From contig NC_044037.1 in the NCBI RefSeq assembly GCF_901765095.1, positions 104,423,279 through 104,487,278 of the forward strand: a stretch of DNA of 64,000 nucleotides. The letters are read 5' to 3'. Under the pieces are notes generated by a model. That model was not told the DNA's origin, ran no database searches, and saw only the letters and a list, made by a program, of their open reading frames with translations. Position numbers and translations under genes: made by a program. This document shows positions 1-52,129 of this stretch, piece by piece (position 1 is the first letter of the stretch; each line of letters starts with the position of its first letter). The stretch is from Microcaecilia unicolor (taxonomy: Eukaryota).

Positions 1-1444
1 TTCTACTGCGGCCCACCTCTTTAACATAACTTCCTGTTTCCTTGGATGCAGGCTGAATTGGGAATTACTGCCACTGCCACCTTTTAGAAAACAAGAAAAG
101 AACTTTGGGGAAGGAAGGGTGGGGAGAGATGATGCCTGAGCAGAGTGGCACCTGAAGCTCCCGCCTCAGTTGGCCTAATGGTAGGGCCACCACTGTATAG
201 TTATAACCAAGACTCCAAGTATTGTCGAAAGTATTCAACTTACCAGTCATGATATGTTCCCCTCCCCTCTAAGCTGCACAGCACTCTCACTCGCACATGG
301 GACAATAATCTGTAACACTGGAGTTGCCGAAGCTTCACCTTTTTGCCATTTGCAAGACAGACCATAGAAGTCTGTCCAGCAATGGCCTCAGTTCCCACTA
401 CTCTTGCCCAATGTAAGAGCCACATTGTGTTTACATGCTCTTTCTATTTAGGCATCCCCTGTGTATTTCCCATGCATTTTTTAATTTGCTCATCTTCTGG
501 CTGGCTTTTATTTATTCAGGGCCCAGGGCAACTGTCCCTTTGCCCATAAGTAAAAGTGGCTCTGCTCCTCTCCCACTCCTGTCCTCAGTCTCCCTCTTTT
601 CATCTATCACCTACTTACTAGCTCTCCATTTCAACACTTACCCCCCTAGTCCCATTCTTACTTGTCTCATTTCTTTGCCAGTGTTCTAATCCCTTTCTCT
701 TTCATTTACTTTCTAGTACCCCATTTCTACCCTCTACATTCATCCCATCCTCACTCCCATCGACCTCTGCCTTATATCCCCTCACCAGCCCCACCCAGGG
801 GCATAGCCAGACACCTAATTTTGGGTGGGCCTGGGCCCAAGATGGGTGGGCAGAACTCCACCTTGTCTCAAAAGTGATTTGGTCTCTCCCGCTCTCGCCT
901 GCATGCCATATGGTCTCTCAAAACATCCCCCTCCCCCGCATACCTTTTAAATTGCAGAGTTTCACCAGCAGCAAGCAGCAACTAATACACACTGCTCATG
1001 TTGACCCCACAGCCTTCCCTATGATGCAACTTGTTGTTTCCGCATAGGTGGGAATACATCAGAGGAAAGGCCATGGGGCCATTGCAAACAGTATGTATCA
1101 GTCGCTGCTCGCTGCAGACGAAGACCTGCTATTTACAAGGTATGCAAGAGGGACAGTTGTTGCGAGTTTTTGGCTGATGGGGCTTGTGGATTCCTGTCAG
1201 CCACATTATAGGTGTGCTGCTACGGGGTGGGCCTGAGCCCACCCAGGCCCACCCTTGGCTACGCCACTGGCCCCGCCTACTTCCCTGTCATTTTCCCCTA
1301 TCCACTTCTAGTCCCTTAAATTGTTTTATCTCCTTATCCAGGCTCCCAGTTCCCATTTTACCTCCCCCAGTTCTACTCTTTCTCCCCTTCAAAGACCTGT
1401 CCTCTGCCTTTGTCTTTCACTCTCCTCTTAGCCCTCTACCATTA

Positions 1445-7639: not shown

Positions 7640-8625
7640 ATTGGTGATAGGATGGGTGGGGTTCACAGAAGGCTAGCCTATCCATGCTTCTGGGCACCAC
7701 AACTGGTTCCACCGAGCCCTCAGTGAATAAAGAGAAGTGAGAAATATGCACGGTCCATCCAGTCTGCCAAACAAGATAAACTCATATGTGCTAGTTTTTG
7801 TGTATACCTTACCTTGATTTGTACTTGTCTTTTTCATGGCACAGACCATATAAGTCCGCCCAGTACTATCCCCGCCTCCCACCACCGGCTCTGGCACAGA
7901 CAATATATGTCTGCCCAGCACTATCCCTGCCTCCCACCCACCAGCCCCGGCACAGACCGTATAAGTCTGCCCAGCACTAGCCCCGCCTCCCAACCACCGG
8001 CTCTGCCACCCATTCTAGGCTAAGCTCCTGAGCATCCCTTCCTTCTGAACAAGATTCCTTTATGTTTATCCCACGCATGTTTGAATTCCATTACCGTTTT
8101 CATCTCCACCACCTCCCGCGGGAGGGCATTCCAAGCATCCACCACCCTCTCCGTCAGTCGGTATATCTTCATAAGACTGGTTTGAATTTGTTCCTGAGAG
8201 AGGTGAATGCCCAAGTCTGTATTCCATTGCTGAGTCACCCTCTCATAGTCATACTGCTTTGTAGAGTCTCTGAGGTGCGAGTGAAAAAACTTCAAAGGGA
8301 TATGTGATTGCGCATCAAGCCCAAGCATGGAGTTATAGCATTCCCAAGTTTCTGTTGCCAGAGAGCGAACATAATGTCTTAGCTGTATATAGGCAAAGAT
8401 ATCTTGTTTGTCCAATTTATACTTCCTACAAAGGTCAGAAAAGGCTTTTATTTTACCCTGCTCTGATACCACGATACAAATATTGTATTCCCTGAGATGC
8501 CCATCTCTGAAAGACCTTCGAAGTGCTGCCCACTGGGAAGGAGGGGGTTCCCTCTTATGGGTAATAAGGGAGAAACTGAATTGCTCAGAGAAAATATTTG
8601 ACATAACCATCTCCACATCTGGCAC
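7640..8625 (-). mobile_element. LINE family 2 (CR1/L2-like) 3' end: ORF2 C-terminus plus characteristic 3' tail
   Basis: Minus ORF 8020..8625 ends ..ERVVDAWNALPREVVEMKTVMEFKHAWDKHKGILFRRKGCSGA. The tail at 7640-8020 is the reverse complement of the tail at 55540-55900 (GGGCAGACTTATACGGTCTGTGCC repeats, CTGGATGGACCGTGCA). Confidence 0.85.
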
Positions 8626-9435
8626 AGGGGACGGAAAATGTGAGAAACTGGACCCAAGTTTGCTGCCTGGCCCGCCGGAGCTTGAAGCCAGTAAGCAAAG
8701 TATTGGGATTCAAACCAGTGGGTCTCTGAGGGGGTGTTAGAGAAATATTGGGAGTTATGAAACCAGTCCGAGAGATGGTGCATACAGCCAGCCACTGAAA
8801 AGAGGCGGAGATCCAACAGTCCCAAGCCCCCTTTGTTTTATGGTAGCGATGCCCTCGAGATGGATAGGCAGGCCCGCTTCCCTTGCCAAAGAAATTTGTT
8901 CAGCTATGTAGCCATCTCTCGTCTTTATAGTGTAAAAACAGGGGTATTGGTGGCATTGCAAAACAAAAATATATCAGTGTTGTAGAGCACAATTTTCTCT
9001 TTCAGATGATACTGTTCACAAGCTGATTCAGGCAGACTCTTTTTTAATAATTGAGTTTGAACTTTGGTATATTTTACCATTTGCGCTGACAGTGCCAACT
9101 TTGAAGAGATCCTGCAGGGCGGTTATAGATGCTGGTTAGTTGCAAATCTGGCAGTATTATGTCCAGCACAAGCTTGTTCAAAATTTCAAGTCCGTATCTT
9201 TGTTTGCATGGAAGTTGTTGCAGTCTGAATATTGGTCCAAATATGTTCCGATGAGTCACGACCAATTTTGATGCACACTTTGAGTCAACTTGTTTGACTG
9301 GATTTTGCATCCATAATGTTAAAATATATTTCATCGGAATTAGCATCAAAAACTGTACAGGATTTGAATTTTTTAGCCATTCTTATAAACGTGTTTGGAT
9401 TTTATTAGACCCCAAAAATGGCATTTTGGTAAATG

Positions 9436-9960
9436 TCACGCGTTCATGGACTGACAACCTTTCAGAAAAGGGGGTCTACATCTGCAACTATTGCAGTTAG
9501 AGACCTCAAATTTTGGGAAACTTCGTTTAACACCTGACTCGTGCAACAGATAAAACTTGAACAAAATTGGAGAACATGATGGTGGGAACTTTAGACCACT
9601 TGGCATGGAATGACCCTTTACTACATTCTCTGGCAACAAATTCCAGAGTTTAATTACACATTGAGTGAAGAAACATTTTCTCCGATTCGTTTTAAATTCA
9701 GTACTTTGTAGCTTCATCGCGTGCCCCCTAGTCCTAGTATTTTTGGAAAGAGTAAACATGCAATTCACATCTACCCATTCTACTCCACTCATTATTTTGT
9801 AGACCTCTATCATATCTCCCCTCAGCCATCTTTTCTCCAAGCTGAAAAGCCCTAGCCACTTTAGCCTTTCCTCATAGGGAAGTCGTCCCATCCCCTTTAT
9901 CATTTTTGTCGCCCTTCTCTGTACCTTTTTCTAATTGAACTATAACTTTAAGATGCGGTG
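9436..9960 (-). mobile_element. CR1-like LINE 3' fragment
   Basis: Minus ORF 9436..9903 contains MIKGMGRLPYEERLKWLGLFSLEKRWLRGDMIEVYKIMSGVEWVD..FTLSKNTRTRGHAMKLQSTEFKTNRRKCFFTQCVIKLWNLLPENVV, which matches the CR1 ORF2 C-terminus at 3700-4000. Confidence 0.85.
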
Positions 9961-12229: not shown

Positions 12230-12780
12230 GAAGCTTCCCATCCTCCCCCTTTCCCCTCTGAGGGGCTGTCCAAGGCAGGGCCGCCGAGGGGGGGGGGGGG
12301 GGGGCTGGCAGGGGGGACAAAATTCCCCGGGCCCGGGCCTCCAAAGGGGGCCCGGCGCCGGGGGTCTCTCTCCTTCTCCTGCTCCCAGGCCACCGGCGCT
12401 GCAGTCCCTGGTCTCACCTGCTTCCCTCGGCTCTGTCGACAGCCCCCCTCCGTCTGCCACAGGGCCACCTGCATTCAAATCGGCAGCGCCTCACCTCCTT
12501 GTGTAAGCAGCAGATCACCTCCCTTCGGGCCTTCCCTCAATGTCCCGCTCTCGTCTGATTTAACTTCCTGTTTCCGCGAACGCGGGACACAGGGAGGGCC
12601 CAAAGGGAGGCGATCTGCTGCTTTCACACGGAGGTGAGGCGCTGCTGATTTGAATGCAGGGGGCTCGGTGGTGGACTGAGGGGGGCTGTCGACGGGGCTG
12701 GGGGTGGGCGGCCTTGCCCTGGATCAGTCTCTCGGTGGCCCTGGTCCAATGATCCTATCCAGCTGGGGGCACTATTGTCC
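12230..12780 (+). repeat. Family-B long palindromic element (poly-G/C terminus, GGGGACAAAATTCCCCGGGCCCGGGCCTCCAAAGGGGGCCCGGCGCC arms, central loop ..TGTCCCGCTCTCGTCTGATTTAACTTCCTGTTTCCGCGAACGCGGGACA..) just downstream of the MVP 3' UTR
   Basis: 12480-12560 and 12585-12665 are reverse complements (cagcgcctcacctcc..gatcacctcccttcgggccttccctc / gagggagggcccaaagggaggcgatc..ggaggtgaggcgctg). Outer arms 12290-12420 mirror 12660-12780. Confidence 0.8.
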
Positions 12781-14698: not shown

Positions 14699-15194
14699 CT
14701 GAAAATGAGGAGGGAGAAACTGTCATACTTCCATTAAAAGCAATTCAGCATCTGTCAAACAGCAATCACATGCACAAAATCACAACTATCTACCTGCTAC
14801 TCCCCTAAAAGAAAAGGTATCTAAAACTCAGTAGCACTCCTCTTTAAAGGATATAGTTGACAAATTCCCATGTAGAAGGGCTACGCCCTCCCCTTTAAAA
14901 ATATGACTCAGAGAAGCTCCAGAGGTGGAACAGCAGCATTTCAGTGTGTAGAATATGAAAGGGCAATTTTCAAACCCTATTCCAAGAATGAATAGCTGTT
15001 TACCCTATTTTTAGCAGGGAAAATCCCTGCTAAAAATGCACCCCCCCATCAACTGGGTAAACAAGTTCCCAGGCTTAAAAGAGGAGTGGAGTCAGGGTAG
15101 AAAGGGGCCTAAAGGAAAGTCACTGTGGATATCTGCACCTACTAATATGCAGGGGCAAAATGTATATGGGTATACTGTCAGGCATATTTTCAAA

Positions 15195-15282
15195 GCACTT
15201 AGCCTTCCAAAGTTCCATAGGTTTCTATGGAACTTTGGAAGGCTAAGTGCTTTGAAAATATGCCTTTATGTCTGCTGGCCAA
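15195..15282 (+). repeat. About 85-bp perfect palindrome (small MITE); second copy at 34992-35075 inserted in a CR1 3' tail
   Basis: catattttcaaagcacttagccttccaaagttccataggtttctatggaactttggaaggctaagtgctttgaaaatatgcc. The near-identical sequence at 34992-35075 interrupts the CR1 tail AAGAACATAAGAGTAGCCAT..GGGTCAGACCAAGGTCCATCTAGCCCAGTATCC. Confidence 0.8.
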
Positions 15283-15881: not shown

Positions 15882-15939
15882 CTGCAGAGAGAGAGAACGA
15901 ATGAATTTACATGCCCTAGGCCAGGGGCGGACTGGCCAT

Positions 15940-16330
15940 TCGGGCAACCACGCAGTGCCAGAGGGCCCAGAGGCTCTGCCCAGAATGCCGCTGGTGATCT
16001 AGTGGCCTCAGCGGAGGGAACATGTTCTTTCCTGGCTGGCCTGCCGCTATTCCCCCCCCCCCCCCCCCCAGCACCACCGTATTTTAAAAATGGCGGCCGA
16101 GACTAGTCTCGCAAGATTACCATGGGAAGTCTCTGCTGCCATTTTGAAAACACGGCAGTGCCAGCAAACGGGGGAATTGCAGAAGCACAGCGGGCAAGAA
16201 AGAACATGCCCCCCCCCCCCCCCCCCCCCACAGAGGCTACCAGACTACTAGGACCCCTCAAGTAGGACTGGGGCAGTGGGGGTGGCGACAGGGGGGTATC
16301 AGGCAGCAGCTGGGCTGGGGACACAGACCA
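15940..16330 (+). repeat. Palindromic element flanked internally by two C20 homopolymers (16058-16078, 16211-16230)
   Basis: ggaacatgttctttcctggctggcctgccgctattCCCC(20) ... gcgggcaagaaagaacatgCCCC(20). The inner segment aaaatggcggc..gctgccatttt is partially self-complementary. Confidence 0.6.
16058..16078. repeat. C20 homopolymer (one of more than 15 poly-G/C tracts of 14-24 nt in the window)
   Basis: Other poly-G/C tracts lie near 5969, 12288, 14241, 16211, 18000, 18579, 22987, 24105, 25837, 26427, 27001, 32291, 39572, 40417, 40489, 44896 and 57707. Most sit at the ends or centres of the palindromic elements. Confidence 0.9.
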
Positions 16331-16424
16331 CCCTCAGTCCACCCCTGCCCTAGGCACTTTAATTTGGAACGCAGAGGGATGGGTAAAGGTCTCATGTTCC
16401 ATAGCTCCTCCTGGCTCCTGTTAC

Positions 16425-16569
16425 CTTGTGGAAGTCATCAAACTGCACCGAGGCTACAGCCCCACGGATGCGAGAAGCAATAGCCTTGCAGGCATCTCCC
16501 ACGAAGTCTGGCACACTGAAGAGCTTAGCAGCTTCTAGAAGGTCATTTTTATCCTTAATGTCAAAGTGC
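16425..16569 (-). CDS. MVP: MVP coding exon 11 ([48 protein letters not shown])
   Basis: Minus-strand translation. Acceptor ttttcag|G, donor AAG|gtaaca. Matches human [48 protein letters not shown]. Confidence 0.9.
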
Positions 16570-16974
16570 CTGAAAATAAGAGATAGAGACGGAGAAAATG
16601 GGGAGAGAAAAAATAATAATACAAAACACCAGGCAGATCAATATTCAGCACAGTTCAAATAGACAGGAGGCATTTACTAACCTGTGTTAGGCAAAGAACT
16701 TGCATTAATGTGCATTAGTTAGTAAATTGGCCACAAGGAGAATAATGGAGCTTGCGCTATATATATCATATCTAATAAAACGCACCTCCAACGTTCTGAA
16801 GCTGACTGCGTGGCTGTTTGGCTGAGGCATTCGTGCGCTGCTCTGCTGTAAGGCTACTGACTGAACGTCACATAGTTCCGGGAACGTCAGCCACAGCACT
16901 GACCAACCGCATGAGGCCCCGCCCCTGCCACAACGCCATGCCCCCCCAGGTTGCCGCCACCAGGCATGCAGGCT

Positions 16975-17260
16975 CGGCCCTTCTCTCTCTGTTAGCTCTG
17001 GTCCCGCCCTCATTTCCTCTTTCCGCAATGAGGGCGGGACCAGAGCTAACACAGAGAGAAGGACCGAGGCTGCACGTCTTTAAACACTGCTTTCCTGGGA
17101 AGATGATTTTTAAAACTTGGAGCGAGTGGGCTCGCCTCCAGCCTTTCCCTTCCCTCACTCAGTGTCCCGTCTTCTTGTGATGATGTATTTCCTGTTTCCA
17201 CAAGGACGGGACACTGTGTGAGACAAGGGAAAGGCTGGAGGCGAGCCTGCTGTGTTGTGT
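16975..17260 (+). repeat. Two adjacent family-A hairpin palindromes (16975-17075 and 17100-17260) in the MVP intron between exons 11 and 10
   Basis: gccttctctctctgttagctctggtcccgccctcat..atgagggcgggaccagagctaacacagagagaagg, and gagtgggctcgcctccagcctttcccttccctcactcagtgtcccgtc..gacgggacactgtgtgagacaagggaaaggctggaggcgagcc. Confidence 0.85.
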
Positions 17261-17472
17261 GCTTCACTGCCATCACTGCGAGGAAATACTTGGTAGGCAC
17301 TACAGATGGAAGTACACCACAGAGCGTGTATGTGTCACAGAACAAGTGGGGAACAAGTGGGTATCAGAGAGTGTGTGAACAGATGCCCCCCTCTGCACTA
17401 AAGATGGATGTTTAACACAGAGCACACACGTGTCACAGGACAGGTGGATATCAGAGGAACAGATGCCCTCAC

Positions 17473-17670
17473 CAGTTGTAGGAGAGCTGGATCTGTAGTC
17501 GGGCATGGTCTGCAGTCTCAATATTGATAATATCTGTACAGAAGTCTGGTCCCAGCAGAAGGCAGATGGATTTGATGACATTGGAGCGTTTTGGCTTCTC
17601 CCCAGAGAGACTGATCACCGTAAACTGCTCGTCTGGTCCAAGAACCACCAGCTCAGGGCCAAAGACCACC
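17473..17670 (-). CDS. MVP: MVP coding exon 10 ([67 protein letters not shown])
   Basis: Minus ORF 17469..17669. Acceptor cctcag|G, donor TG|gtgagg. Matches human [66 protein letters not shown]. Confidence 0.9.
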
Positions 17671-18329
17671 CTGAGGAGAGAAGGAGAAAATGGTAAGACA
17701 GAAAGGCTGGGAAAAGTGAAAGGAAGGAAAAGAGAAAAGTGCAGAGCATGTAACTCAATAGGAGAGCACTTGGGTTTGATTCCCCCTGGGAAGGGGCTCT
17801 TTCACTATACATTGGTAACACTTACTTGCCAGACGTATGGCGCACATATCCCAGGAAAGGGAGAATGTTATAGACTAGAGGGAAAACCCCTTGGTAGTTT
17901 CTTATTAAATTTTATGATACTGAAGCGCAATAAAGGTTGAGTCCAAGCAGGGCTGCCAAGAGACTGAGCCAGGCCTAGGGCAGGGCCACCGCATCCCCCC
18001 CCCCCCCCCCCCCAGGATCATCGAAGCTGCTGTATCCCCAGGATCGCCCCACCTCCGCCCCCCCCGGATCGCTGTCACTGCTGCCCCCCCCCCAAACTCC
18101 AAATACCTTGGCTGGCAGAGATCCCGAGGCCCTGCAAGCAGAAGAAATCTTCCTCCAGCTCTGCAGTGCTCTTCACTCCGCTGCCTCAATGTCTGCCTTG
18201 CCCCTGTGGCTGCTTTTCCCCTCAGGCCGTGCATGATCAGTTTTGAATCCGACCACGCCTGACGTGAGAGAAAAAGCAGCCGCTTGGTAGGCAATGCAGC
18301 AGAGAGTGAAGAGCAGCGCTTGAGGAAGA

Positions 18330-18610
18330 CCTCTTCTGCTGGCAGAGCCTGGGGGGGTGGGGACCCCTGCCAGCAAAACCAGATGCCCTGGCCTGAAGCC
18401 CTGCTGCGTCTGCTCCTTCCCAGCCTCCAAGGGGGGCCCGGCACTGGAGTTCTCTCTCTCCTGCTCCTGTCGGGACGTGATCACCAGGGTCCTGTCAGGA
18501 GCAGGAGAGAGAGAGAGAGAGAGATCCTGGCGCCGGGCCCCCCTTGGAGGCTGGGCCCGGGGAATTTTGCCCCCCCCCCCCCCCCCCTTGGCGGCCCAGA
18601 GTCCAAGTGA
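18330..18610 (+). repeat. Family-B-related palindromic element in MVP intron 9 (poly-C18 at terminus; (GA)n in the loop)
   Basis: ctccaaggggggcccggcactggagttctctctctcctgctcctgtcgggacgtgatcaccagggtcctgtcaggagcaggagagagag..cgccgggccccccttggaggctgggcccggggaattttgcccccccccc. It shares the GGGGCAAAATTCCCCGGGCCC..CCTCCAAGGGGGGCCCGG motif with 12300-12360. Confidence 0.8.
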
Positions 18611-19999: not shown

Positions 20000-20520
20000 G
20001 GCCGCTAGCAAGGTTTTCCTCGGCTCCCCTGCAGCCACCCATGTCCAGCGACCCTCCTCTCTCCCTGCAGCCACCCATGTCTAGCTACCCTCCTCTCCCC
20101 CTGTGCCCACTGCAGCCACTCATGTCCAGCGAACCTCCTCTCCCCTGCCCCCCCTCCTGCCACCCATGTTCAGTGACCCTCCTCTCTCACCTGCCCCCCC
20201 TCCAGCCACCCATGTCCAGTGGCCCCTCCTCCAGCCACCCATGTTCAGAAACCCTCCTCTCTCCCCTCCCTCCCTGCAGCCACCCCTGTCCAGCGACCCT
20301 CCTCTGTACCCTGCCCCCCCTCCAGCCACCCATGTCCAGCGACCCTCCTCTGGACATGGATCAGCTATGAGGCATGTTTTTTTCCCCCCGGGTTCTGAAG
20401 TTGACATCATAATGGCTACCCTGATGTCAGCCTGATCTACGGAGCCTAGCAGACCAACTCGGAATGAGCCACGGTCCCAGGCAAGTCAGAACATTGGAGG
20501 TGAGAATTATTATATAGGAT
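20000..20520 (+). repeat. Satellite-like tandem array (about 45-bp unit CCACCCATGTCCAGCGACCCTCCTCTCTCCCTGCAG, about 8 copies) plus conserved 3' flank; in MVP intron 8
   Basis: Directly visible periodicity. The 3' flank GATCTACGGA..CCACGGTCCCAGGCA..GGAGGTGAGAATTATTATATAGGAT recurs at 53060-53170. Confidence 0.85.
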
Positions 20521-21869: not shown

Positions 21870-22085
21870 AATGGAGTGGAGGAGTGGCCTAGTGGTTAGA
21901 GCACCGGTCTTGCAATCCAGAGGTGGTTGGTTCAAATCCCACTGCTGCTCCTTGTGATCTTGGGCAAGTCACTTAACCCTCCATTGCCTCAGGTACAAAC
22001 TTAGATTGTGAGCCCTCCTGGGACAGAGAAATATCCAGTGTACCTGAATGTAACTCACCTTGAGCTACTACTGAAAAAGGTGTGA
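21870..22085 (+). mobile_element. tRNA-derived SINE
   Basis: Head GGAGTGGCCTAGTGGTTAGAGCACCGGTCTTGCAATCCAGAGGTGGTTGGTTCAAATCCCACTGC shows pol III A and B boxes. Body is TTGGGCAAGTCACTTAACCCTCCATTGCCTCAG..., ending in an A-rich tail. Confidence 0.8.
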
Positions 22086-26329: not shown

Positions 26330-26690
26330 CCTCCCAACCAGTGGCGTTCCTAGTGTCGACGACACCCGGGGCGGATCGCCGATGCGCCCCCCCGGCGAAA
26401 TGACACCCCCCCCGGGTGCATGCTGCTGGGGGGGGGGGGGGGGGGGGTGCCGCGGCGCGCGCCTGTCGGCTGTGAGTTCGACTCGCTACGCTAAATTCTC
26501 TCGTTTGCTGCAGCTCCCTCCCTCTGCCCCGGAACAGGTTACTTCCTGTTCCGGGGCAGAGGGAGGGAGCTGCAGCGAACGAGAGAATTTAGCGTAGCGA
26601 TTCAAACTCGCAGCCGATAGGCGCTCGCCGCGGCACCCCGCCAGCGGCGTGCACCCGGGGCGGACCGCCCCCACCGCCCCTTGGTACGTC
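26330..26690 (+). repeat. Long GC-rich palindromic element with G21 tract (26427-26447) and central hairpin 26480-26600
   Basis: gactcgctacgctaaattctctcgtttgctgcagctccctccctctgccccggaacaggttacttcctgttccggggcagagggagggagctgcagcgaacgagagaatttagcgtagcgattc. The outer arms (gggcggatcgccgatgcgcc../..cacccggggcggaccgcc) also pair. Confidence 0.8.
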
Positions 26691-27560
26691 ACTGCTCCCA
26701 ACACCTCCCCAAACTATCTCCCCTCTCCATATTTCTATCCTTGGTATTGCAGCCCTACTCATACCTCTCACCCAATTAGCTAGACCCTCAGTCCCCACTA
26801 TTCCCCCACTCTTACACCATATCCAGTCCCCACTTACACTCCCAATACCCAGTCCATCTTAGGATCTGCCATCTTCTGGCCTCCCACCCAGATTCCCTGC
26901 TCTCCTGCATCCCTCATTCCCCCAGCACCTGCCCATCCACTTCCTTCTCCAATATTCATTGACCCTGTCTTTCCTCTTCATTACCTATCATCCAACCCTG
27001 CCCCCCCCCCCCCCCCACACTTTCCCACAGCATCAGCCCATTTCCAGTCCCTGCCTCTCCATCAATCCCCCTTTCCAGTTCCAATCAGTCTGCCTACTAC
27101 CCCTGGATGAATCCTTTTACACAATAATGGCACCTTTTGCCTTTGCCCCTGCTGCTGTACTGCCCTTCTGATGGCTCTGCCATAGCATTTTTAAAAGATG
27201 AAGATAAGCACTTAACAGAAATAGAAGTTTTTTTTCACCTTTTAAAAATTCCACAACAGCCAGCATCAAAACAGTATAGTGGCAGGACTGAAGCCACAAG
27301 CTCCCACTGCTGTGAAGCGGCAGACTGCTGATACAGGCTTTTGGCACTTTAAGCCAGTGCCTCACTGGCTCAGTCCTCATACTGACACTGCTCCTGCTAC
27401 TCCAAATAGACCTCACCACTCTCAGTGCAATCTAACTTGCTAATAAAAGGTAGGATTGGAAGTTGAGTCTACAAGTGTACTACCTCCATATAAGTCAATG
27501 CTGAAGGTTACAGAGTGAAGGCTGGTGGCTGCACTGGGATTAATGTTAGGACATATTTAC

Positions 27561-31199: not shown

Positions 31200-31930
31200 G
31201 GAGTGAGCTCTGAGGAATCTCATAAAAAGCAGGGGCGTAGCCACGGGCGGGCCTGGGCCCACCCAATTTTGGGTCAGGCCCGCCCAGCAGCAAAGTTCCT
31301 GACGGTGATTCCAGTCGCAGGCTCCGCTCGCACTCGCAGCGATTCCCACACGCTGCCTGCCGGCTGCCGCTCAATCTCCTTGCGCTACTAAGCGCTAACC
31401 CGGAAGTCTCTTCTCTGCAGCAGAGACTTCCAGGTTAGCGCTTAGTAGCGCAAGGAGATTGTTGAGCGGCAGCCGGCAGGCAGCGTGTGGGAATCGCTGC
31501 GACTGCGAGCGGAGCCTGCGAGTAGAATCGCCGTCAGGAACACTGCTGCTGGGCGGGCCTGCAAGGAGGGTGAGATGCTGCAGCTGCACGGGGGGGAGGG
31601 AAGACGGGGGACACAGCAGCTGATGGAAAGAAAGATGCTGCACAGGGGGGAGGGAAGATGGAAAGATGAGGCTTGGTTGGTGAGTGAGGGAGATGCACGG
31701 GGAAAAAGGGAGAGATGCAGCAAAGGGGTGGAGGGGTGAGGAAGGGAGAAGTCTTGGCTGTGTATGAGGTGGAGGGGAGGGACACATGCTGCATACAGAG
31801 GGGATAGGTGGGGAGGGGGAGAAATTGTGGGTATAGTGGTGGAGGGAGGGCGGAGCAGAGAAAATTTTGTGCCCACCCAGTTTGGGCTCAGGCCCACCCA
31901 AAACTGGCTGTCTGGCTACGCCACTGCTAA
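31200..31930 (+). mobile_element. TIR-bounded non-autonomous element: about 60-bp terminal inverted repeats (GCAGGGGCGTAGCCACGGGCGGGCCTGGGCCCACCCAATTTTGGGTCAGGCCCGCC) with an internal 270-bp perfect hairpin and an AG/CT-rich body
   Basis: 31220-31275 is the reverse complement of 31865-31925. The internal palindrome 31290-31560 is centred on aagtctcttctctgcagcagagactt. TIR-like half-sites with adjacent CT-rich sequence also occur at 780-850 and 1200-1270. Confidence 0.7.
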
Positions 31931-33289
31931 AAAGACTCTTTTTCCAACCTAATTTGTGAGTTAAATGTTGCTGCACCAGTTTTGTTAGCATTTATAGTAT
32001 GTTATTTGGGAAAACTTTTAAAACAGAGGTGGCAAATTCCTTTTCTATCAAAAGTAAAAGACACAAAACCCGAGCCTCTATCCTCACAAAAAATGGCATC
32101 TGGCAAACTGGAAGAGCAGTAGTGTGCTGGAGCTGACTCGCACCGGCTCACAAGAGCTGGCTGTTAAAAAACACTTTGTGAGGCGGTTGTTGAACAGGCT
32201 GGTACACAGTGGTGTACAGTGAACATCTGTTTTTTTTTCTCCCCACTAAAGGTAACAGCATCGTCCTCATCTCTCCCTCCTCTATCCCCCCCCCCCCCCC
32301 CCACGAGTCCAGCACACCTCTCAACTTTCAATTACTCTTCCAGCTGCACTAGCAGTAACACTACCTGGCCAACTCGGAGTCATTTCTCTGCCAGATCCCG
32401 CCCACACGTAAACAGAAAGTTGCATCAGTGGGCCAGGACATGGCAGAGAAAAGGCTCCAGGTCGGCCAGGTAGTGTATTATCACTAGTGCTGATGGATGA
32501 GTAGTGATGTTTGAAGGACAGCCGGTGATTGGGGGTGGGGGGGTGGGGGGAAGCCCAACCTAAAGCTTAAAGCCCACCTCTTTGCTACTGCTTTCGACTC
32601 CTAACCATGACTCACTTATCACCCCTACCACTGCAATTTCCCCACCCCTAGCTGTCTGTTCGTCTGTCCAATTTAGATTGTAAGCTCTGTTGAGCAGGGA
32701 CTGTCTTTTCATGTTAATTTGTACAACGCTGCGTAAGTCTAGTAGCGCTATAGAAATGTTTAATAGTAGTAGTAGTAGTAGGAAGGACTGGACTTGTGAA
32801 GTAGGGTAAAAGATTTGTTTTTTTTTTGGGGGGGGGGGCTGGGGGAGAAGTGTTGGATTTGCAGGTGAGGGGGAGAGGAGAGATATTGGACTTTTGAGGC
32901 GCACTGGGGCAGGAAAAATGCCAGACAATAGATGAGGAAACCAGGGAGAGAGAGGGGAGATGCTGGGTGAGGGGTGGGAGAGAGTGATTAAGAGAGAGAT
33001 GCTGGACTGTGGGATGCAGGGAAGAGAGGAAGAGAGATGCTGGGCCTACAAGCACATGCGACTATAGAAATCCAAACACTGCTCCTTCCCGAATTGTGTA
33101 GGCACTAAACCACATTTAGCAAGCTTTCACTTCTAATATGCTATTTACTGCCTACATGGATAGGCTAGGTTTCCTGCAGCCTCTCTCCCCTTGAAGCCAC
33201 TGCCTGAAAGAACATTAAAGCTGCATTTTTTTTCAGGGGGAGGGAGGAGGAAGGGGAGGACAGGGAGCTGCTGGACCATAGGGGATGAA

Positions 33290-34959: not shown

Positions 34960-35175
34960 CATAAGAACATAAGAGTAGCCATAGGGGCTCATTTTCAAAG
35001 CACTTAGCCTTACAAAGTTCCACAGATTACAATGTAACTTTGTAAGTCTAAATGCTTTGAAAATACGCCTCATACTGGGTCAGACCAAGGTCCATCTAGC
35101 CCAGTATCCTGTTTTCCAAACAGTGGCCAAGCCAGGTCACAAGTACCTGGCATAAACCCAAATCATGGCAACACT
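34960..35175 (-). mobile_element. CR1 3' tail fragment (reverse) interrupted by the 85-bp palindrome
   Basis: aagaacataagagtagccatagggg[palindrome]tactgggtcagaccaaggtccatctagcccagtatcctgttttccaaacagtggccaagccaggtcacaagtacctggc. Confidence 0.75.
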
Positions 35176-37282: not shown

Positions 37283-37479
37283 CTGAGCAAGAAGAGTCAA
37301 AAACAGACCATTATGAGGAACAAGACATATGAAAGCAAATTTTAGATACAATGTAGATATCGGAACTGAGACATCCAGGTCAGGATGTCTCAAATTCCAC
37401 TAGCGTTTTACAAAATGGCTCTGCCGACGTAATCTTTTCTAAATTCATGTAGGAACAATGATGGATACTTATAGCCAGG

Positions 37480-37870
37480 GCCGCTGAAAGGGGGGAGGGG
37501 GGGCAGGAGGGACCCGGCGCCGCAATCCCCGATCTCACCCGCCCTTGGCTCCGTCGACTGTCCGCCACTGGGCCGGGCCCCCCGCATTGAAATCATTACA
37601 GCGCCTCACCTGTCACCTCGCTCTGTGACTGAAAGCGCAGCAGCGGCAGATCGGATTCGCCTCCCTTCGGGCCTTCCCTCCCTGTGTCCCGCCCTCGTGT
37701 GATGTAACTTCCGTGAGGGCAGGGCACAGGAAGGGAAGGCCCGAAGGGAGGCGAATCCGATCTGCGGCTGCACTTTCAGTCAGGGAGCGAGGTGACAGGT
37801 GAGGTGCTGTAATGATTTCAATGCAGGGGGCCCAGCCCAGTCTCTCGGTGGCCCTGCTTATAGCCCGCTA
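37480..37870 (+). repeat. Family-B long palindromic element in MVP intron 1 (same loop family as 12230-12780)
   Basis: Arms ..cattgaaatcattacagcgcctcacctgtcacctcgctc..gcagcggcagatcggattcgcctcccttcgggccttccctccctgtgtcccgccctcgtgtgatgtaacttccgtgagggcagggcacagg.. pair with their reverse complement at 37735-37830. Confidence 0.85.
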
Positions 37871-40849
37871 CTCTCCCTAAAACTAGGCTCAGCGTGGGTT
37901 AACAAAAGAAAAACTATGAGACTGATTGTTTCTGGAAACAAAAAGATGAAGATGCTCCAATATCTACAGGAAGTGCATTCCAATATTTAGTCATGCAAAA
38001 TAATGCAGACTTTTCCTGAAAACCTTTAAGTTTGATTCCTCTAAACGAAGGAACTCTCAGCATAAGATGGTAGAGAACATTATTCTTGTAGCTATCATAT
38101 AAATAATGTGACTAATGAAGTCAGATGAGAAGGGCAAAAGCCCTCTAAAATCATAACAACAAAGCAACATATTTTTAAAAGTATTCTTGCTCTTATTGGA
38201 AGCCGATGCAGTTCAACCAACTAAGGAGATACATGGTCATACTTAGCTTGGCAAAAAATTAGCCTAGCAACTGTATTCTGGATCTAATGTAACCTTTGCA
38301 GTTGTTTTTCTGCGATTCCTACATACAGAGAATTACAGTAGTCTAGTTGCGACAACATCAACAGCTGTACCAACACCTTAAAATGGCTCGGGAAAAAATA
38401 AGAACAGACCAGCCATAGCTGTTCCAGCTTAAAGACCTTTTGTGACAGATTTTTAATCTGAGCATCCATAGTCATAGTAAAGTCTAGGATAACCCCTAGC
38501 ACTCTTCTTTTACGATCTACAATCAACTGAGATCCATTGAAACATGAGACATAATTTGGAATATTAGTCTCACTTACACCATACCATAAAATCTTTGTCT
38601 TATCTGCATTTAGTTGAGCTTAACAAAGACCAAACACTTAATTTCCTCCATACAGTAACTGATTTTAGTAAACAAGCTATCTTGAGATAATCCAGTTGAA
38701 ACCAATACGAAAATATGATATGCTGGCTACATGTGGTGGCGGCAGCATCCATTTGCAAACATTGGTGTCTACAGTATTGTCACGGTCACCCCAGTGCTCC
38801 CTTACCTCCGTGTCAGGGCCCAGTGTGACAAGCTCTGCTGCCCTCCGACCTGCTCTTTCCTCCGACCTTCCTACAGCTGTGCATGCTCGTTTGGTGGAGG
38901 CTGGATGGGGGTTGGCGCTGCTCAGGCCCGTCCCTCACTGACATCATCACCCTGGGCCTTCTTCTGCAGTTGCTACTCTGCTTTGCAACAGGTCATCCTG
39001 GTTCCAGCTTCCAGCACAGCTTCAGATTCCAGCCTTGGTTCCAGCTCAGCTTCTGCTTCCTGCCCTGGTTCCAGCCTCCAGCTCAGCTTCAGCTTCCAGC
39101 CTTGGTTCCAACTCCAGCACAGCTTCAGCTTCCAGCAAAGGTCCTGGTTCCAGCTCCAGCACAAATTCAGATTCAGTTCTGGGTACAGCTTCCTTCAACG
39201 CCTCTACTGGAGCAATCCCTTCTGCAGGGACTCGTCCGCCGTTTGCTACAGTCTGTCTGTCCCCTGGGCAGGCAGGCACTACTGTTCCACTACAGTCCTA
39301 GGGCTCACTCATCCTAAATCGTGACATATGTATGTGCCGTGTTGCCTCTGTTGATATATCTATGTTTTCCAAGCTCACAGAGTCCAATATCATTTGCCAC
39401 CACTTTTGAGGGGGATAAAAATACTAGGGGATTTAGGGGACAATATCCCCTAATCCCTACTGTAGAATACTGCACAAAATGAGCACCTTTAAAGAACTTA
39501 GATGTCCCCAGGAGTAGCTGTGAATCCTGATGTTAATCTTGAAAAACCGCACAAGCCAAAAAAAAAAAAGGGGGGGGGGGGGGGTCAAAGCCACCATATC
39601 TGTTTTATAACAGAAGTGTGTGTGTATGTGTTCATATATATAGTTGCATATGGTTTACCTTCATACAGGACCCCTGACGAAGGCTACTTTGCCGAAACAC
39701 AGCTCGTGTCTAGTTTTGCCTGTATGGACTATTGATGAATAAACTATTTGGAACATTAAACCTGTATGTCCTTGAAATTTGTTGTCTTTTGACCTGTGGG
39801 TTTGGAGGCTTCCATCCCTTTTTCAGCTTGTGCAGTGCAGCTTCTTGTGGAAGTGTTTTGCTCTTCTTTTTGTTTTTTTCTCTGATCTTGGAGAACAAAT
39901 AGGTATTCCATTTCTAAAATGGGGAATATATGAGTATATATTAACCCCAACCTAGTCCCACTCAAAACACATCCAGACCATGCCTCCTCACCACATACAT
40001 GTACTCTCAATCTGGACATGTATATCCCAGTTTTCTAAAACTGGGATTTAGACATGTATATGATAAACATGTCTAAGTGCCAGTTTATAACCACCTTTAA
40101 TTTATATGTAACTTTTTATGTGCAGTGTGCTTGATTTATTACCCCAAGAAACTGATTCCTGTTATGAACTGTATCTTTTGGATCTTTTACCGCACTGAAG
40201 ACCTCAATAGATTTTTTTTTTGTTGTTGTTATTTTCCTCCCACCTTCTTCCAAATTATGTTTTGAAGAAAGCCACAGCAGAATCAGAAGACGGCGTCCTT
40301 TTAGTGTTACTGCTTCTCCTCCCCTCATTCTAATGTGACAAGACTGTTGGGTCTCAGACAGTGGTGTGCTGGTAAATGTTTAACAACAAGCTCTCTCCAC
40401 GGTCCACCTCTGCGCCCCCCCCCCCCCCCCCACATCTACCTCTGCACCCCCCCAAATTGTAGAGCTGGCTATAGCCGGGGAAAGAGCCGGGGGGGGGGGG
40501 GGGGGGGCAATGCATTACTCTCTCCAGGAAAAAAAAATTAAATGATCCCAGGTTCCAATCTAATTCATGTTTAATGTGGGATAAAATGCCATAAATAAAT
40601 AAATATAAACTTTTAATGTTCAGCACCTGATTTTCAAAGTGGACATATTCCAAGCACTATAATGAAAATAAAATGATTTTTTTCTACCTTTGTTGTCTGA
40701 TAACTGTTTTTCTGATCATGCTGGCCCAGTATCTGATTCTGCTGCTATCTGTCCTCTTAACTTCGTTTCCAGGGCTTCCTTTCCATTTATTTCTTTACTT
40801 TCCGCCTTTCTTCATCATTTCTTGCCCTACATCCGTAAGTAAAAACTGT

Positions 40850-41400
40850 GTCCTCCGCAGACTTGACTGTCCAGCATTTCTTCTCTCTCTCCCTTCCCTC
40901 TCCTCCATCCATGTCCAGCATTTTTCCTGTCTCCCCTCCATTCCTCTCTCTTCCCTCCCCTCTATCCATGTGCAGCTCCTTCCTGTCTTCCCTCCATCCA
41001 CCCATGTCCAGCAAACCTCCTCTCTCTCCTGCCCTCCTCTCCATCCACCCATGTCCAGCAACCCTCCTCTCTCCCCTGCCCTCCAACTATCCATCCATAC
41101 CCAGCAATTCTCTTCTCTCCCCTGACCCCCTTTCCATCCATACCCAGCAATTCTCTTCTCTCCCCTGACCCCCTTTCCATCCATACCCAGCAATTCTCTT
41201 CTCTCCCCTGACCCCCTCCCATCCATCCATACCCAGCGATTCTCCTCTTTCCCCTGCCCTCTCCTCCCGCTCCCATCCATGTCCAGCAATTCTCCTTCGC
41301 CCCCGCCCTCTCCTCCCACTCCCATCCATGTCCAGCGATTCTCCTTCTCCCCCATCCTCCCCTCCCATTCATATTTCACCTGCCCGCCCTCTTCTCCCCC
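40850..41400 (+). repeat. Satellite-like tandem array, same family as 20000-20370 (units ..CCATCCATGTCCAGCAA(T/C)CCTCCTCTCTCCCCTGCCC..; later units CCATCCATACCCAGCAATTCTCTTCTCTCCCCTGACCCCCTTT); in MVP intron 1
   Basis: About 11 tandem units are visible. This explains the large overlapping ORFs on both strands (40795..41433, 40962..41372). Confidence 0.85.
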
Positions 41401-41499
41401 CAACATCCCCCTTTTTCTTCCTACCAGTGCCACCCTGTGTGATTTAAATCTTTTTTATTACTTCCGTCGAAGTGGCCGCGTCATTGAAAGCCCTGCCTG

Positions 41500-41640
41500 T
41501 CTCTAGCCTTCCCTTCGTGAGTTTGTTCCCTCAGAGTCCCGCCTTCTGACCTCATTTCCTCTTTTCGCAAGGGCGGGACTCTGAGGGAACGAACTCACGA
41601 AGGGAAGGCTAGAGGCAGGCAGGGCTTTCAATGACGCGGC
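41500..41640 (+). repeat. Family-A hairpin palindrome in MVP intron 1
   Basis: gcctgtctctagccttcccttcgtgagtttgttccctcagagtcccgcc..ggcgggactctgagggaacgaactcacgaagggaaggctagaggcaggc. Confidence 0.85.
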
Positions 41641-42034
41641 CGCTTTGATGGAGGTAATAAAAAAAGATTTAAAACCACACAGGGCGGTGCGGGGCGGGAA
41701 CAGGCAAACGAGGGCTGTGGGAGGTGAGGTAAGCGGGGTAAGCATGGTTTGTGGCGCCCTCCTGCCACGCTTACCTCGTTTACTGGAGCCGGCTCGCAAG
41801 ATCTTAAAAACAAAACAAAAAACTTAACAACCAGCTCTTGCAAGCCGGTGCGAGCCGGCTCCAGCACACCACTGGTCTCAAGCTCCCATAGCACAGACTT
41901 TCTTAAGAGCTGACGACACAAATGCCCGTCCCAGGAAGGAGGTCCTCAAGGACACTTTTAAGCAGGCTCCAGAGCCCCCCCCCCCAACACACCCACAGCA
42001 CATACCCCACAGTGACAACTGAGATTGCACTTAC

Positions 42035-42156: not shown

Positions 42157-44052
42157 TGTGAGGGTTATGGAGCTATGGAAGTCACTGGAGAGAGAGAGAG
42201 GAAATAATTTACAGAAACAAAGAATGATATGAGAAGGAAATTTCCTCAATACTAAAAATATTCTGTAGTTCTTACAGAATATACACTTGTTCCCAGCTCC
42301 TATGTTTGAGGCATATTACAATCATATGACATTAGTTTCTGAGAGTGCCCAACATCTGTTAAGAAGCATCAGAAGCAGCATTGCCAACTGTCAGCAAATG
42401 CGCTGACAGATTAAAAAAAAAAAAAAAAAAAAAAAAAGACGATATGGCTATAAAATAATTTCATGACAATACAAACATCATGAGCCACAAAGTCTGTCTC
42501 TGGTGTCGAGGGCTTGGGCTCAAACTCAGAACAGGGTTGGTAGGTCAGATTTACGTATAAACTAGGCAAGCAACAGCTTAGGGCCTTACGCTTTACTAGA
42601 ATGGAAAAAAGTATTGAAACCCCAGATTTACTTCCTACTAAATTGACAGGGGATGGGGGGAAGCTCTTAAATATTGCAGTTTAGGGGCCACAATAAGCAT
42701 AAATCTGGCCCTGTCTCTGAACTACTCGGGAATTGGGAATTATACCTCCGTCCACAAAGAGTCTGGGATATGAAATGTCCACATAAACAGGTGTGCACAA
42801 AATGGCGCTGGTAAGAAACATGTCAAAAATAGAAGATGGGAAACTCAAAAAATATTTACATGAGTTGGCAAACCTGATTAGAGTTCTGGGAACAGTACAT
42901 GTTTCCCTAATAAAGGGACATCCTTTTAAAGCAAGAGATTACCACCACAAATAGAACCTCTCTTTGAGGCCATTGGATCACAGAAACCCACAGTGCTGAG
43001 GTGATACAAGTTTACCTTCCCTAGTATCATGCCCACGTTAAGGCCTCAGAGAGAAAATCCTGTACAGCAGTAAGATAAAGCCTTCATTTACAGAATAACC
43101 ATCACAGTGAAAGGAAGGTGGGAAAGGCAAGGTGAGGCACAGTACAGAGGTGAGCGAAAGAAAGAAAGAAAGAGATCAGAAGCAAGGGAAGTGAGTAGGG
43201 ACTGGGAGGAATAGAAATGAAGAGGGAGAGAGTGCGGAAAGGATGACGTGGGGAGGGCGTGGGCAAGGCCCTTTCACCTACAGGATTTGAGAGTCACACC
43301 TTGTACTGTCAGTACAGAGAGATATCATAGGGCTTCAATGATGCTTCCTCTGCTAGTCTTTCCAAATCTTTACCCCTACCCAACCAGAAGTGCTGGCATG
43401 CACTGAGATGTTAGAGTTGGTATGTGCTCATACATGTTTATTTGTGTTACAAACACTATCAGATTTGCTGTAACCTCCTTAGGGTGCTGAAGGGCCCCAG
43501 TCATGAACCAGTTCTGATATATAGCCCTCAATTCTACCACTTGCCTGTGCCTTCAGGCCCAGGATGTATTTGGGTACAGGGTGCTCTACTTTCTTACTAC
43601 TTTTACAGCACTCGGATTTCTATCGTTATACATGAATGAGGAAGACACTTAGAAAGTGAAAACAGAATGTGTGTGTGCACCTTTCACTCTTCCCAGCCTC
43701 GAACTCTGCCTGTTTTCTGAGGCAGGCTCAGGAGAAGCTGTCTCTCAAGACTATGTCCCTATACTTCTAGAGAAGGCATTAGCCTGACAACACACACAGG
43801 CCATGGTTACTCGAACCCAGCTCTGCTCTACTGTGAAATCCCTACCAAAGGAAGGCAGAATCCTTTACCTTGATTGCAACATTCCCTGCCATCTCAGGAC
43901 TGCCAAACTATCAGGAAAAATACATTTATGTAATTATTTATAATCCACACCAATATTCTAAGTGGAGTACAAGCAATACACCCATAATTAAAATCAAAAC
44001 TCAAACATATGTAAAAAGAAACATATATTCAATGCATACATTACACAGTCAG

Positions 44053-44099: not shown

Positions 44100-44570
44100 C
44101 CTCTCCTCCGAGTTCCAAGCCCCCCTCCCTCTCCCTCCATCCCGCCTCCATTCCAGACCCCCCTCGCTCCCTCCGAGTTCCAGGCCCAGTGGCCCGCCCT
44201 CCCTCCGACTGAGTTCCAGCCCAACCTCTTCTCCCACTCCAACAGTGCTTCGCCTGCCCCTCGCCTTCCTGCATGCCGCCCAGAATTTAAAAGTCATCTT
44301 ACCGGGGTCTCGGCGGCAGCAGTGAAATGCGAGCAGGCTCGGTGAGTCGACGCTTCAGCAGGCTGCCTTCCCTTCTCTTCGCTCTCAGCTCTGCCTCTGG
44401 TCCCGCCCTCATTTCTTGTTTCTGCAAGGGTAGGACCAGAGGCAGAGCGAAGAGAAGGGAAGGCAGCCCGCTGAAGCGCCGACTTGCCAAGCCAGCTCGC
44501 CTTTCACTGCTGCCGCCGGGACCCCAGTAAGATGACTTTTAAATTCTAGGCGGCATGCAGGAAGGCGAGG
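44100..44570 (+). repeat. Composite element: tandem CTCCGAGTTCCAGGCCC units (44100-44270) joined to an approximately 300-bp near-perfect palindrome (44270-44570)
   Basis: Arms 44270-44415 and 44425-44570 are reverse complements (..gaatttaaaagtcatcttaccgggg.. / ..ccccagtaagatgacttttaaattc..). The loop core is ctctggtcccgccctcatttcttgtttctgcaagggtaggaccagag. A (TA)17 microsatellite lies just upstream at 44057-44090. Confidence 0.8.
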
Positions 44571-44639
44571 GGCAGGCGGACTCTGTTGAGGGAGATGGGA
44601 GAAGACGTCAGGCAGCGGGCTGGCTCCTGGCTGGGAGCT

Positions 44640-52090: not shown

Positions 52091-52129
52091 TGCTGCTACC
52101 TGCCGGCCGCTCCGATGTCGACAACGAGG

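Follow-up and report, generated by a model that had tools for sequence, protein, structure and literature searches.

The stretch of DNA analysed here, a 64-kb window of the genome of the caecilian amphibian Microcaecilia unicolor, contains the gene for the major vault protein (MVP), which lies on the minus strand with its coding sequence running from 42156 to 13260. On translation, the exons match the major vault protein XP_030064741.1, the majority of them at 100% identity, and at the 5' side of the gene a non-coding block (42859-43480) is conserved with Rhinatrema bivittatum. LINE reverse-transcriptase fragments are present within the window, where we found only these LINE reverse transcriptases and neither a hAT transposase gene nor an autonomous hAT element.

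Palindromes in and around the MVP gene

In a sequence-only reading of the window, nine palindromic loci with a common loop core had been listed, and inverted repeats were indeed found at or near all nine places. Based on a window-wide scan, 18 palindromes reached a score of at least 50, compared to none in five shuffles. The GTCCCGCCCTC core occurred 12 times with at most one mismatch, where 0.62 occurrences were expected, and none of 100 shuffles reached 12. The loops of the core-family palindromes have GTGTGATGYAAC-TTCCTGTTTCCGCA in common, and the conserved centre of 20-45 nt is asymmetric, with the order GTCCCGCCCTC - GTGTGATGYAACTTCCTGTTTCCGCA - GAGGGCGGGAC. The repeat family is real and statistically solid. 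With a profile of the palindrome centre we identified two members beyond the earlier list, at 938-1145 and 32285-32551. Around the copies we looked for larger palindromes or common flanks and found none, except for p12 and p37 (the palindromes of the elements E12 and E37 in the table below).

The hairpins had been described as perfect or near-perfect, which was too strong: the arms of the nine listed loci are 78-94% complementary, so that the hairpins are imperfect, the one at 56498-56600 being the weakest (78%). The stems of the core-family palindromes span 48-190 bp, and the proposed folding check showed that they pair, with RNA folds of -94 to -122 kcal/mol and z-scores of -13.4 to -17.9. 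Long GC-rich hairpins would thus be expected from folding in the MVP pre-mRNA, as had been suggested, with imperfect arms. A tRNA, 5S or other RNA origin of the palindromes was considered and rejected, as no tRNA was found and Rfam returned generic hairpin models only; a partial likeness of the p12 loop to 5S rRNA was dropped, having no Rfam support. Read by eye, the centre also holds putative promoter-like motifs, namely a GC-box, an ETS-like and a CRE-like motif.

With respect to the gene, four of the nine listed loci (starting at 16967, 17129, 37567 and 41430) lie in MVP introns, and not five as stated earlier; the palindrome at 12424-12704 is positioned past the MVP stop codon and the one at 44224-44608 upstream of the conserved 5' block, both outside the introns. 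The intronic copies had also been said to occur in either orientation. The four listed ones all have the same loop orientation, and the only reversed member, 32285-32551, was not on that list. Overall, eight loops are on the plus and one is on the minus strand (binomial p ~0.04). The bias weakens to 8:2 when the minisatellite is used to orient E51, and it may be due to chance. The position of the core-family elements inside MVP is incidental, and they are passengers in and around the gene.

Elements enclosing the palindromes

The palindromes are not free-standing hairpins, but the interiors of larger elements with their own termini. Right at the palindrome ends no direct repeats above chance were found, and the true ends are located 0-150 bp further out. 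The clue to these ends was a motif, CAGGGCCACCGAGAG, that p12 and p37 have in common just outside the palindrome, as an inverted pair around each. In a blind scan for YARNG-type ends, with a TIR match of at least 10/13, an 8-bp target-site duplication (TSD) of at least 7/8 and ends 80-900 bp apart, eight elements were detected, compared to a mean of 0.03 in 30 shuffles and none in the reversed sequence. As the hAT superfamily is characterised by 8-bp TSDs and YARNG termini (PMC3014272), these TIR/TSD structures identify the eight as non-autonomous hAT transposons. Seven of them enclose palindromes of the census, and three (E1, E12 and E37) carry core-family palindromes, which bears out the earlier suggestion of a MITE family, as does the check for TSDs that had been proposed with it. 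The TSDs are perfect in five of the scan elements and 7/8 in the other three; that of E37 can be read directly in the sequence. Apart from one end of E18 (CTGGG), each of the elements begins with CAGGG or CAGTG, and the TIRs match at 10-12/13. A Helitron identity, for which no target duplication, 5'-TC...CTRR-3' ends and insertion between A and T would be expected, was rejected, as 8-bp TSDs and CAGGG termini were found instead.

Core-family loci and related hAT elements in the 64-kb window (p1, p12, p37 and p51 denote the palindromes of E1, E12, E37 and E51)
Feature	Position	Strand	Description	Termini and TSD	Palindrome
E1	796-1269	+	complete hAT-type element, 474 bp, of a different TIR type (CAGGGGCRTAGCC); family HMM match inside at 1018-1073 (E 1.7e-4)	TIR 11/13; TSD GCCCCACC/GCCCCGCC, 7/8	938-1145, old core-family palindrome, loop TGATGCAACTTGTTGTTTCCGCA, arms 74% identical
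E12	12276-12743	+	complete hAT-type non-autonomous element, 468 bp, just past the MVP stop codon; order: 5' TIR, G17 tract, one arm belonging to a second type of palindrome, core-family palindrome	5' TIR CAGGGCCGCCGAG; 3' TIR CAGGGCCACCGAG as reverse complement; TIR match 12/13; TSD GTCCAAGG/GTCCAATG, 7/8	12424-12704, arms 85% identical
E15.9	15922-16347		hAT element of the blind scan	TSD CCCTAGGC, perfect	no census palindrome inside
p16	16967-17074	+	core-family palindrome, B subtype, in the MVP intron that separates exons 17472-17708 and 16425-16568; outer arms degenerate, flanks homologous to p44 outer arms		arms 48 nt, 94% identical; loop TCCTCTTTCCGC, flanked by GTCCCGCCCTCATT and AATGAGGGCGGGAC; fold -99.7 kcal/mol, z -15.7
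p17	17129-17247	+	core-family palindrome in the same MVP intron as p16, 55 bp away; nearest relatives p41 and p51		arms 51 nt, 90% identical; fold -94.2 kcal/mol, z -15.2
E18	17948-18599	.	related hAT element with C19 and C18 tracts	TIR 11/13; TSD AGTCCAAG, perfect	18123-18354 and 18419-18555
E26	26339-26694	.	related hAT element with a G20 tract	TIR CAGTGGCGTTCCT/CAGTGACGTACCA, 10/13; TSD CTCCCAAC, perfect	26441-26642, centre CCGGAACAGGTTACTTCCTGTTCCGG, arms 93% identical
E31	31230-31926	.	related hAT element with the E1 TIR type; right half minisatellite-like	TIR 12/13; TSD ATAAAAAG/CTAAAAAG, 7/8	31275-31561, different palindrome
p32	32285-32551	-	old core-family palindrome in an MVP intron, sole copy with reversed loop; HMM E 2e-4 on the minus vs 0.34 on the plus strand		arms 73% identical; non-CpG divergence 20%; CpG o/e 0.28
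E37	37476-37856	+	complete hAT-type element, 381 bp, in the first coding intron of MVP; order: 5' TIR, G-rich tract, palindrome, 3' TIR abutting the right arm	5' TIR CAGGGCCGCTGAA; TSD CTTATAGC, perfect 8 bp on both sides; left junction ...ACTTATAGC to CAGGGCCGCTGAAAG, right junction CTCTCGGTGGCCCTG to CTTATAGC...	37567-37841, arms 130 nt, 91% identical; fold z -17.9
p41	41430-41687	+	core-family palindrome of the B subtype; location, first coding intron of MVP; minisatellite 40887-41367 (unit 43-57 bp) on the left, subterminal region on the right; flanks homologous to p44 flanks		arms 116 nt, 91% identical; youngest copy, non-CpG arm divergence 2.6%
p44	44224-44733	+	palindrome plus right subterminal region, B subtype; ~750 bp upstream of the conserved MVP 5' block	right end TIR-like ...GGCCGGCCCTG at 44733, motif CAGGGCCGGC on the minus strand at 44724-44733; left end looked for, not found	44224-44608, arms 190 nt, 86% identical
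E51	51908-52437	.	probable element with palindrome p51, a long right arm homologous to p44 as far as the TTTTAAAA block, and a minisatellite	TIR-like CAGGGCCGGTCTT at 51908; TIR-like CAGGGCCGGC on the minus strand ending at 52437; TSD 4/8, ends tentative	51955-52062, loop reduced to GTTTT
p56a	56140-56442	+	core-family palindrome, A subtype, upstream of MVP; central 67 nt 82% identical to p37 in the same orientation		loop TGTGACGTAACGTCAG; arms ~150 nt, 86-87% identical
p56b	56498-56600	.	weak diverged palindrome, 56 bp from p56a; probable distant relative		arms 45 nt, 78% identical, score 37
E62	62683-62875		hAT element of the blind scan	TSD TTCTACAT, perfect	62683-62875

Termini and interiors of these elements are combined in several ways. 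E12 and E37 can be aligned end to end, and E18 has termini as in E12 and E37 with other palindromes inside. Similarly, E1 and E31 have ~50 bp in common at each terminus and differ in their interiors. The B-type copies (E44 and E51) have a related terminus, CAGGGCCGGYCT, plus an internal minisatellite. The termini are conserved within each TIR type, so the earlier view of the loop as the sole conserved part was not upheld. Across TIR types, however, conservation of the centre exceeds that of the termini, which is unusual for a transposase-driven element. CAGGGCCRCC-like motifs with at most one mismatch were counted 23 times, where 7.5 were expected, and clustered in E1, E12, E18 and E31 on both strands. 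Such TIR-like motifs recur within the arms, also in both orientations; short subterminal repeats that are related to the TIR are a typical hAT feature. The targets of hAT elements follow a weak consensus, nTnnnnAn, and in the TSDs found here T was present at position 2 in 5/8 and A at position 7 in 4/8, in a sample (n=8) that is too small to judge by.

For p16, p17, p41, p44, p56a, p56b, p23 and p32 a TIR/TSD search did not give the ends. In p16 and p17 no convincing pair of YARNG TIR and TSD was found, and the best end candidate (16811-17272; TSD 7/8, TIR 8/13, non-YARNG) was at about chance level. The homology of p16, p17, p41, p44, p56a and p56b to copies with defined termini suggests that these six belong to the family as well; in the case of p16 and p17 the homologous copies are p44, p51 and p41.

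Divergence and symmetry of the arms

Based on BLAST comparison, the similarity between copies is 65-84% and centred on the loop. The stems had been reported to differ, and this is true in so far as they are diverged, with an arm identity of 45-79% between elements compared to 84-94% within one element. However, in the arm alignment the same ordered blocks (CATT[C/G/T]AAA, GCCTTCCCTTC, CTCAG/CCTGTG and GTCCCGCCCTC) are present in all copies, which indicates that the stems are homologous but diverged. Two subtypes were distinguished: A comprises p12, p37 and p56a, with the loop GTGTGAYGTAAC..., and B comprises p16, p17, p41, p44 and p51, with the loop CATTTCCTSTTTCCGCAA.

At least two different symmetric states were seen in 102 of the 144 columns of the arm alignment. 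Between E12 and E37 we counted eight mirrored substitutions and no arm-specific or crossed sites, and indels of 21 nt and 6 nt are found in both arms of the one element and in neither arm of the other. Mirrored substitutions were also counted between p44 and p51 (eight) and between p41 and p17 (ten). These mirrored substitutions and indels indicate concerted evolution of the arms within the lineages from which the copies arose. The previous suggestion that the family regenerates as foldback elements thereby gained indirect support, consisting of the mirrored substitutions, the 21-nt and 6-nt indels and the lack of arm-specific sites.

After insertion the copies decay and their arms drift apart, partly via CpG transitions: 37 of the 135 arm mismatches are CpG-type transitions, and the non-CpG arm divergence across copies ranges from 2.6% to 20%. 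The elements are rich in GC (51-66%) and, while young, also in CpG; the CpG o/e is ~1 in the young copies, has dropped to 0.28 in the oldest one, and averages 0.34 over the window. Variable symmetric ends were at one stage taken as a sign of synthesis from the centre outwards, an idea that was withdrawn after the outer arms and the TIRs had been found.

At the orthologous MVP locus, neither the core motif nor a match to the profile was found in Rhinatrema bivittatum (41 kb) or in Discoglossus pictus (34 kb); both loci hold fewer palindromes, from other families. E37 and p41 lie in the first coding intron of MVP, which measures 4.7 kb in M. unicolor compared to 0.48 kb in Rhinatrema. The absence of the core family from the two orthologous loci, together with the longer first coding intron, points to a lineage-specific invader. 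As the Rhinatrema alignment is limited to the exons and a few intron blocks, no empty sites are readable in it.

Origin of the family and comparison with known systems

We consider it about 80% probable that the loci represent a caecilian-lineage family of small (~350-700 bp), non-coding, MITE-like DNA transposons of the hAT superfamily, in which the interior is one long inverted repeat. Rather than a new kind of element, the family is an undescribed member of the hAT MITEs that have a long inverted repeat inside. In the literature we did not find a description of this hAT-type palindrome family; the caecilian genome paper gives repeat figures at class level only, with class II elements being ~20 times rarer than retrotransposons. 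The elements would be moved in trans by a hAT transposase, by cut-and-paste, and in the propagating lineages one arm would now and then be re-copied from its partner. The simplest route for this may be intrastrand template switching, with fold-back synthesis from the short core hairpin while a gap is repaired or the palindrome is replicated; gene conversion between the arms is an alternative for which an identical pattern would be expected. Every new burst would then begin with a near-perfect palindrome. Such re-copying of arms would account for the mirrored indels, for the near-perfect young palindromes and for the differences between copies. The presence of the same palindromic module in shells of at least three TIR types suggests a reshuffling of interiors and termini. 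Hairpins formed by the MVP pre-mRNA, if any, would be a by-product.

More tentatively, the arms may be re-synthesised by hairpin-primed fold-back repair that is nucleated at the conserved 11-bp core stem, which would make the palindrome a 'self-perfecting' module, mobile between hAT shells, with a centre selected for this function. We regard this extension as rather doubtful.

A related but less probable explanation is that the palindromic module is a separate foldback MITE, with a mobilising mechanism of its own, that was inserted into differing hAT shells. This would fit the occurrence of the core palindrome in shells of three TIR types (CAGGGCCRCCGAG, CAGGGCCGGYCT and CAGGGGCGTAGCC) and of unrelated palindromes in shells of a single TIR type, and a TTTAAA block near the outer part of the B-type arms recalls the TTAA flanks of the Tol2/Angel precedent. 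However, the palindrome extends past TTTAAA (p1, 9 nt; p41, 13 nt; p44, >55 nt), and in A-type copies the block reads TTCAAA or TTGAAA, a change that is mirrored in both arms, so the block is part of the palindrome and not a TSD. Moreover, the palindrome ends have no direct repeats beyond chance length, and the E12 palindrome runs into the hAT TIR itself. A TTAA duplication flanking the ends of the caecilian palindromes was looked for and not found. We consider the insertion of a separate MITE to be improbable.

The sequence-only reading had also raised the possibility of Dicer/Drosha substrates, either miRNA-like or precursors of endo-siRNA, or of editing targets. As functional small-RNA genes or editing targets, the hairpins would be maintained by selection in the MVP introns. 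The RNA folds are very stable, pairing is preserved via mirrored changes, and miRNAs have arisen from palindromic DNA transposons elsewhere (miR-548 from MADE1 and miR-1302 from MER53). Nevertheless, such a function appears very unlikely to explain the loci. Rfam gave no matches at the gathering thresholds, with 60.7 bits for the best sub-threshold match where 93 were required, and the sub-threshold matches fell on both strands and on many unrelated single-hairpin models. The stems of 48-190 bp are far beyond the length of pri-miRNA stems, which are ~35 bp. In addition, some copies lie outside the MVP gene, the arms diverge with age (2.6-20% at non-CpG sites, with a CpG o/e of 0.28 in the oldest copy), and the hairpins are absent from the orthologous Rhinatrema and Discoglossus loci. 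The mirrored indels argue for copying rather than for compensatory selection acting base by base.

We give still less credence to the loci being relics of a self-priming, terminal-hairpin replicator of a parvovirus-like or rolling-hairpin kind, with the core as the priming hairpin, although the centre is conserved and asymmetric, the arms are mirrored, and the putative GC-box, ETS-like and CRE-like motifs might be promoter-like. The 8-bp TSDs and hAT termini are ordinary hallmarks of cut-and-paste transposition, which speaks against the hairpin-primed replication intermediate that had been proposed, and no Rep-like or NS1-like ORF was found within the 64-kb window. Of six matches of the core pattern to viral contigs, one was inspected and proved to be a chance GC-rich hairpin, the loop of which is unrelated, in a contig of 63% GC. 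Finally, assembly artefacts such as long-read palindromic chimeras can practically be dismissed: the palindromes are unusually frequent and the M. unicolor assembly is built from long reads, but the copies are short and set in unique flanks, differ mutually by 20-55%, show a spread of ages with CpG decay and bear TSDs.

For annotation, these hairpins are to be masked as hAT-derived repeats, and not listed as miRNA genes, viral relics or regulatory palindromes. Small DNA transposons account for about one tenth of this genic window, as roughly estimated by adding up the element lengths. Only the concerted evolution of the arms, with its clean signature of mirrored substitutions and indels, is of wider interest; given the whole genome, it could serve to test how palindromic MITEs keep their symmetry.

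Long inverted repeats of which the arms stay alike while the copies diverge are also found in the foldback elements FB and Galileo of Drosophila; the arms of these elements consist of tandem subrepeats, and they belong to superfamilies other than hAT. Correction of quasipalindromes by intrastrand template switching would account for mirrored indels. For the caecilian elements this mechanism is proposed only from the mirrored changes.

Among the mammalian palindromic MITEs, MADE1, which is derived from Hsmar1, is the source of miR-548, and MER53 is the source of miR-1302 (PMC5224488, PMC2996404). Being palindromic over the whole element, these fold into hairpins when transcribed from introns, as the caecilian palindromes would, and they are the precedent for the miRNA idea. 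They differ in being 80-193 bp long, in having TA duplications, in being related to Tc1/mariner and in having demonstrated small RNAs, whereas the caecilian elements are known from sequence alone.

A closer parallel in structure is Tol2, a hAT element of medaka, which according to a recent preprint carries internal inverted repeats of 302/303 bp that originate from the Angel MITE (bioRxiv 10.64898/2026.01.12.699174, citing Izsvak 1999). It resembles the caecilian elements in being a hAT element with a long internal inverted repeat that can form a hairpin, and in the modular relation of shell and palindrome. In contrast to the non-autonomous caecilian elements, Tol2 is autonomous and 4.7 kb long, with a nested MITE flanked by TTAA as its internal repeat.

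The vertebrate hAT MITEs are also represented in Anolis carolinensis, in which 32 non-autonomous hAT families have been described (PMC3014272). The caecilian elements share with these the 8-bp TSDs, the YARNG termini (CAGGG or CAGTG), the short TIRs and a non-coding length of a few hundred bp, and as in Anolis there are several families with common termini and differing interiors. Unlike in the Anolis hAT MITEs, the interior of the caecilian elements is almost wholly one long inverted repeat with a centre that is conserved across TIR types, and G/C homopolymer tracts and minisatellites are built into the elements.

Insertion, pairing and orientation of the palindromes

An endonuclease-like LINE ORF (51408-51932) continues directly into the left end, at 51908, of E51, the probable non-autonomous hAT element that encloses the B-type palindrome p51. 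This end resembles a terminal inverted repeat (TIR). The LINE sequence was not picked up again beyond E51, and a deletion or rearrangement during or after the insertion therefore has to be assumed.

Three close pairs of palindromes, with 55-65 bp between the partners, were found in the window, where about 0.35 would be expected. The pairing at 18123-18555 is accounted for by both palindromes sitting within one hAT element, E18 (17948-18599). The asymmetric loop of the core-family palindromes pointed in the same plus-strand direction in eight of the nine copies that could be oriented, some of them outside MVP (binomial p ~0.04), and the ratio becomes 8:2 when the minisatellite is used to assign a direction to E51 as well. 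This bias may be due to chance.

Minisatellites were present on the flanks of the B-type palindromes p41, p44 and p51, with a unit of the form CCATCCATGTCCAGC...CTCCTCTC that is also seen as its complement. They appear to be internal portions of the B-type elements, and spurious long Pro/Ser-rich ORFs arise from them.

Repeat features in the window (TSD, target-site duplication)
Feature	Position	Details
Close palindrome pair	16967-17247	
Close palindrome pair	18123-18555	
Close palindrome pair	56140-56600	
Minisatellite	20026-20352	43-57-bp units
Minisatellite	40887-41367	43-57-bp units
Minisatellite	~44100-44223	43-57-bp units
Minisatellite	52146-52320	43-57-bp units
Perfect palindrome, 86 bp	15180-15265	41-nt arms, 100% identical
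Diverged sibling of the 86-bp palindrome	34986-35069	
Palindromic hAT MITE, 193 bp	62683-62875	Charlie-like terminus CAGTGGTTCTCAA; perfect TSD TTCTACAT
hAT element, 426 bp	15922-16347	TIR CAGGGGYGGACTG; TSD CCCTAGGC; no long palindrome
TIR-like end CTCTCAGTAGCCCTG	ends at 44969	beyond right end of E44
G/C run (example)	12288-12304	
G/C run (example)	16209-16229	
G/C run (example)	17995-18013	
G/C run (example)	18570-18587	
G/C run (example)	26428-26447	
G/C run (example)	40415-40431	
G/C run (example)	40489-40507	

Other small elements and G/C runs

The 86-bp palindrome and its sibling are a separate small MITE family, for which no clear target duplication was made out. The 426-bp hAT element contains two C18-C21 tracts, and its end is separated by 78 bp from the MVP exon 16425-16568. 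The stretch between the right end of E44, the probable hAT element of p44, and the TIR-like end beyond it (44734-44969) contains a G16 tract as well as a short hairpin at 44741-44794, and is probably another truncated hAT element.

Homopolymer runs of G or C are very common in the 64-kb window: they numbered 26 at a length of at least 8 nt and 19 at a length of at least 12 nt, compared to seven A/T runs of at least 12 nt. Several of the G/C runs are integral to hAT elements, adjoining the TIR. Such runs are also abundant in the MVP loci of Discoglossus pictus (61 in 34 kb) and Rhinatrema bivittatum (14 in 41 kb).

The MVP gene in comparison with Rhinatrema

Two MVP paralogues are annotated in M. 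unicolor, both on one 311-Mb chromosome and differing at 49 of 852 residues; the window encodes XP_030064741.1 (13260-42156, minus strand). Upstream of the ATG exon, a non-coding block (42859-43480) showed 69-76% identity to positions 8005-9484 of the Rhinatrema locus (L001), and is probably the MVP promoter or a 5'UTR exon. A tRNA-like match at 21878-21950 scored 28.7 bits, slightly under the Rfam threshold of 29, and the adjoining 21929-22004 matched L001 4350-4425 at 83%; this may be a SINE-like repeat common to both caecilians. The first coding intron measures 4.7 kb in M. unicolor (37295-42031) in comparison to 0.48 kb in Rhinatrema (L001 10126-10605), whereas the intron at 16583-17403 has the opposite size relation, with 0.8 kb in M. 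unicolor and ~11.7 kb in Rhinatrema.
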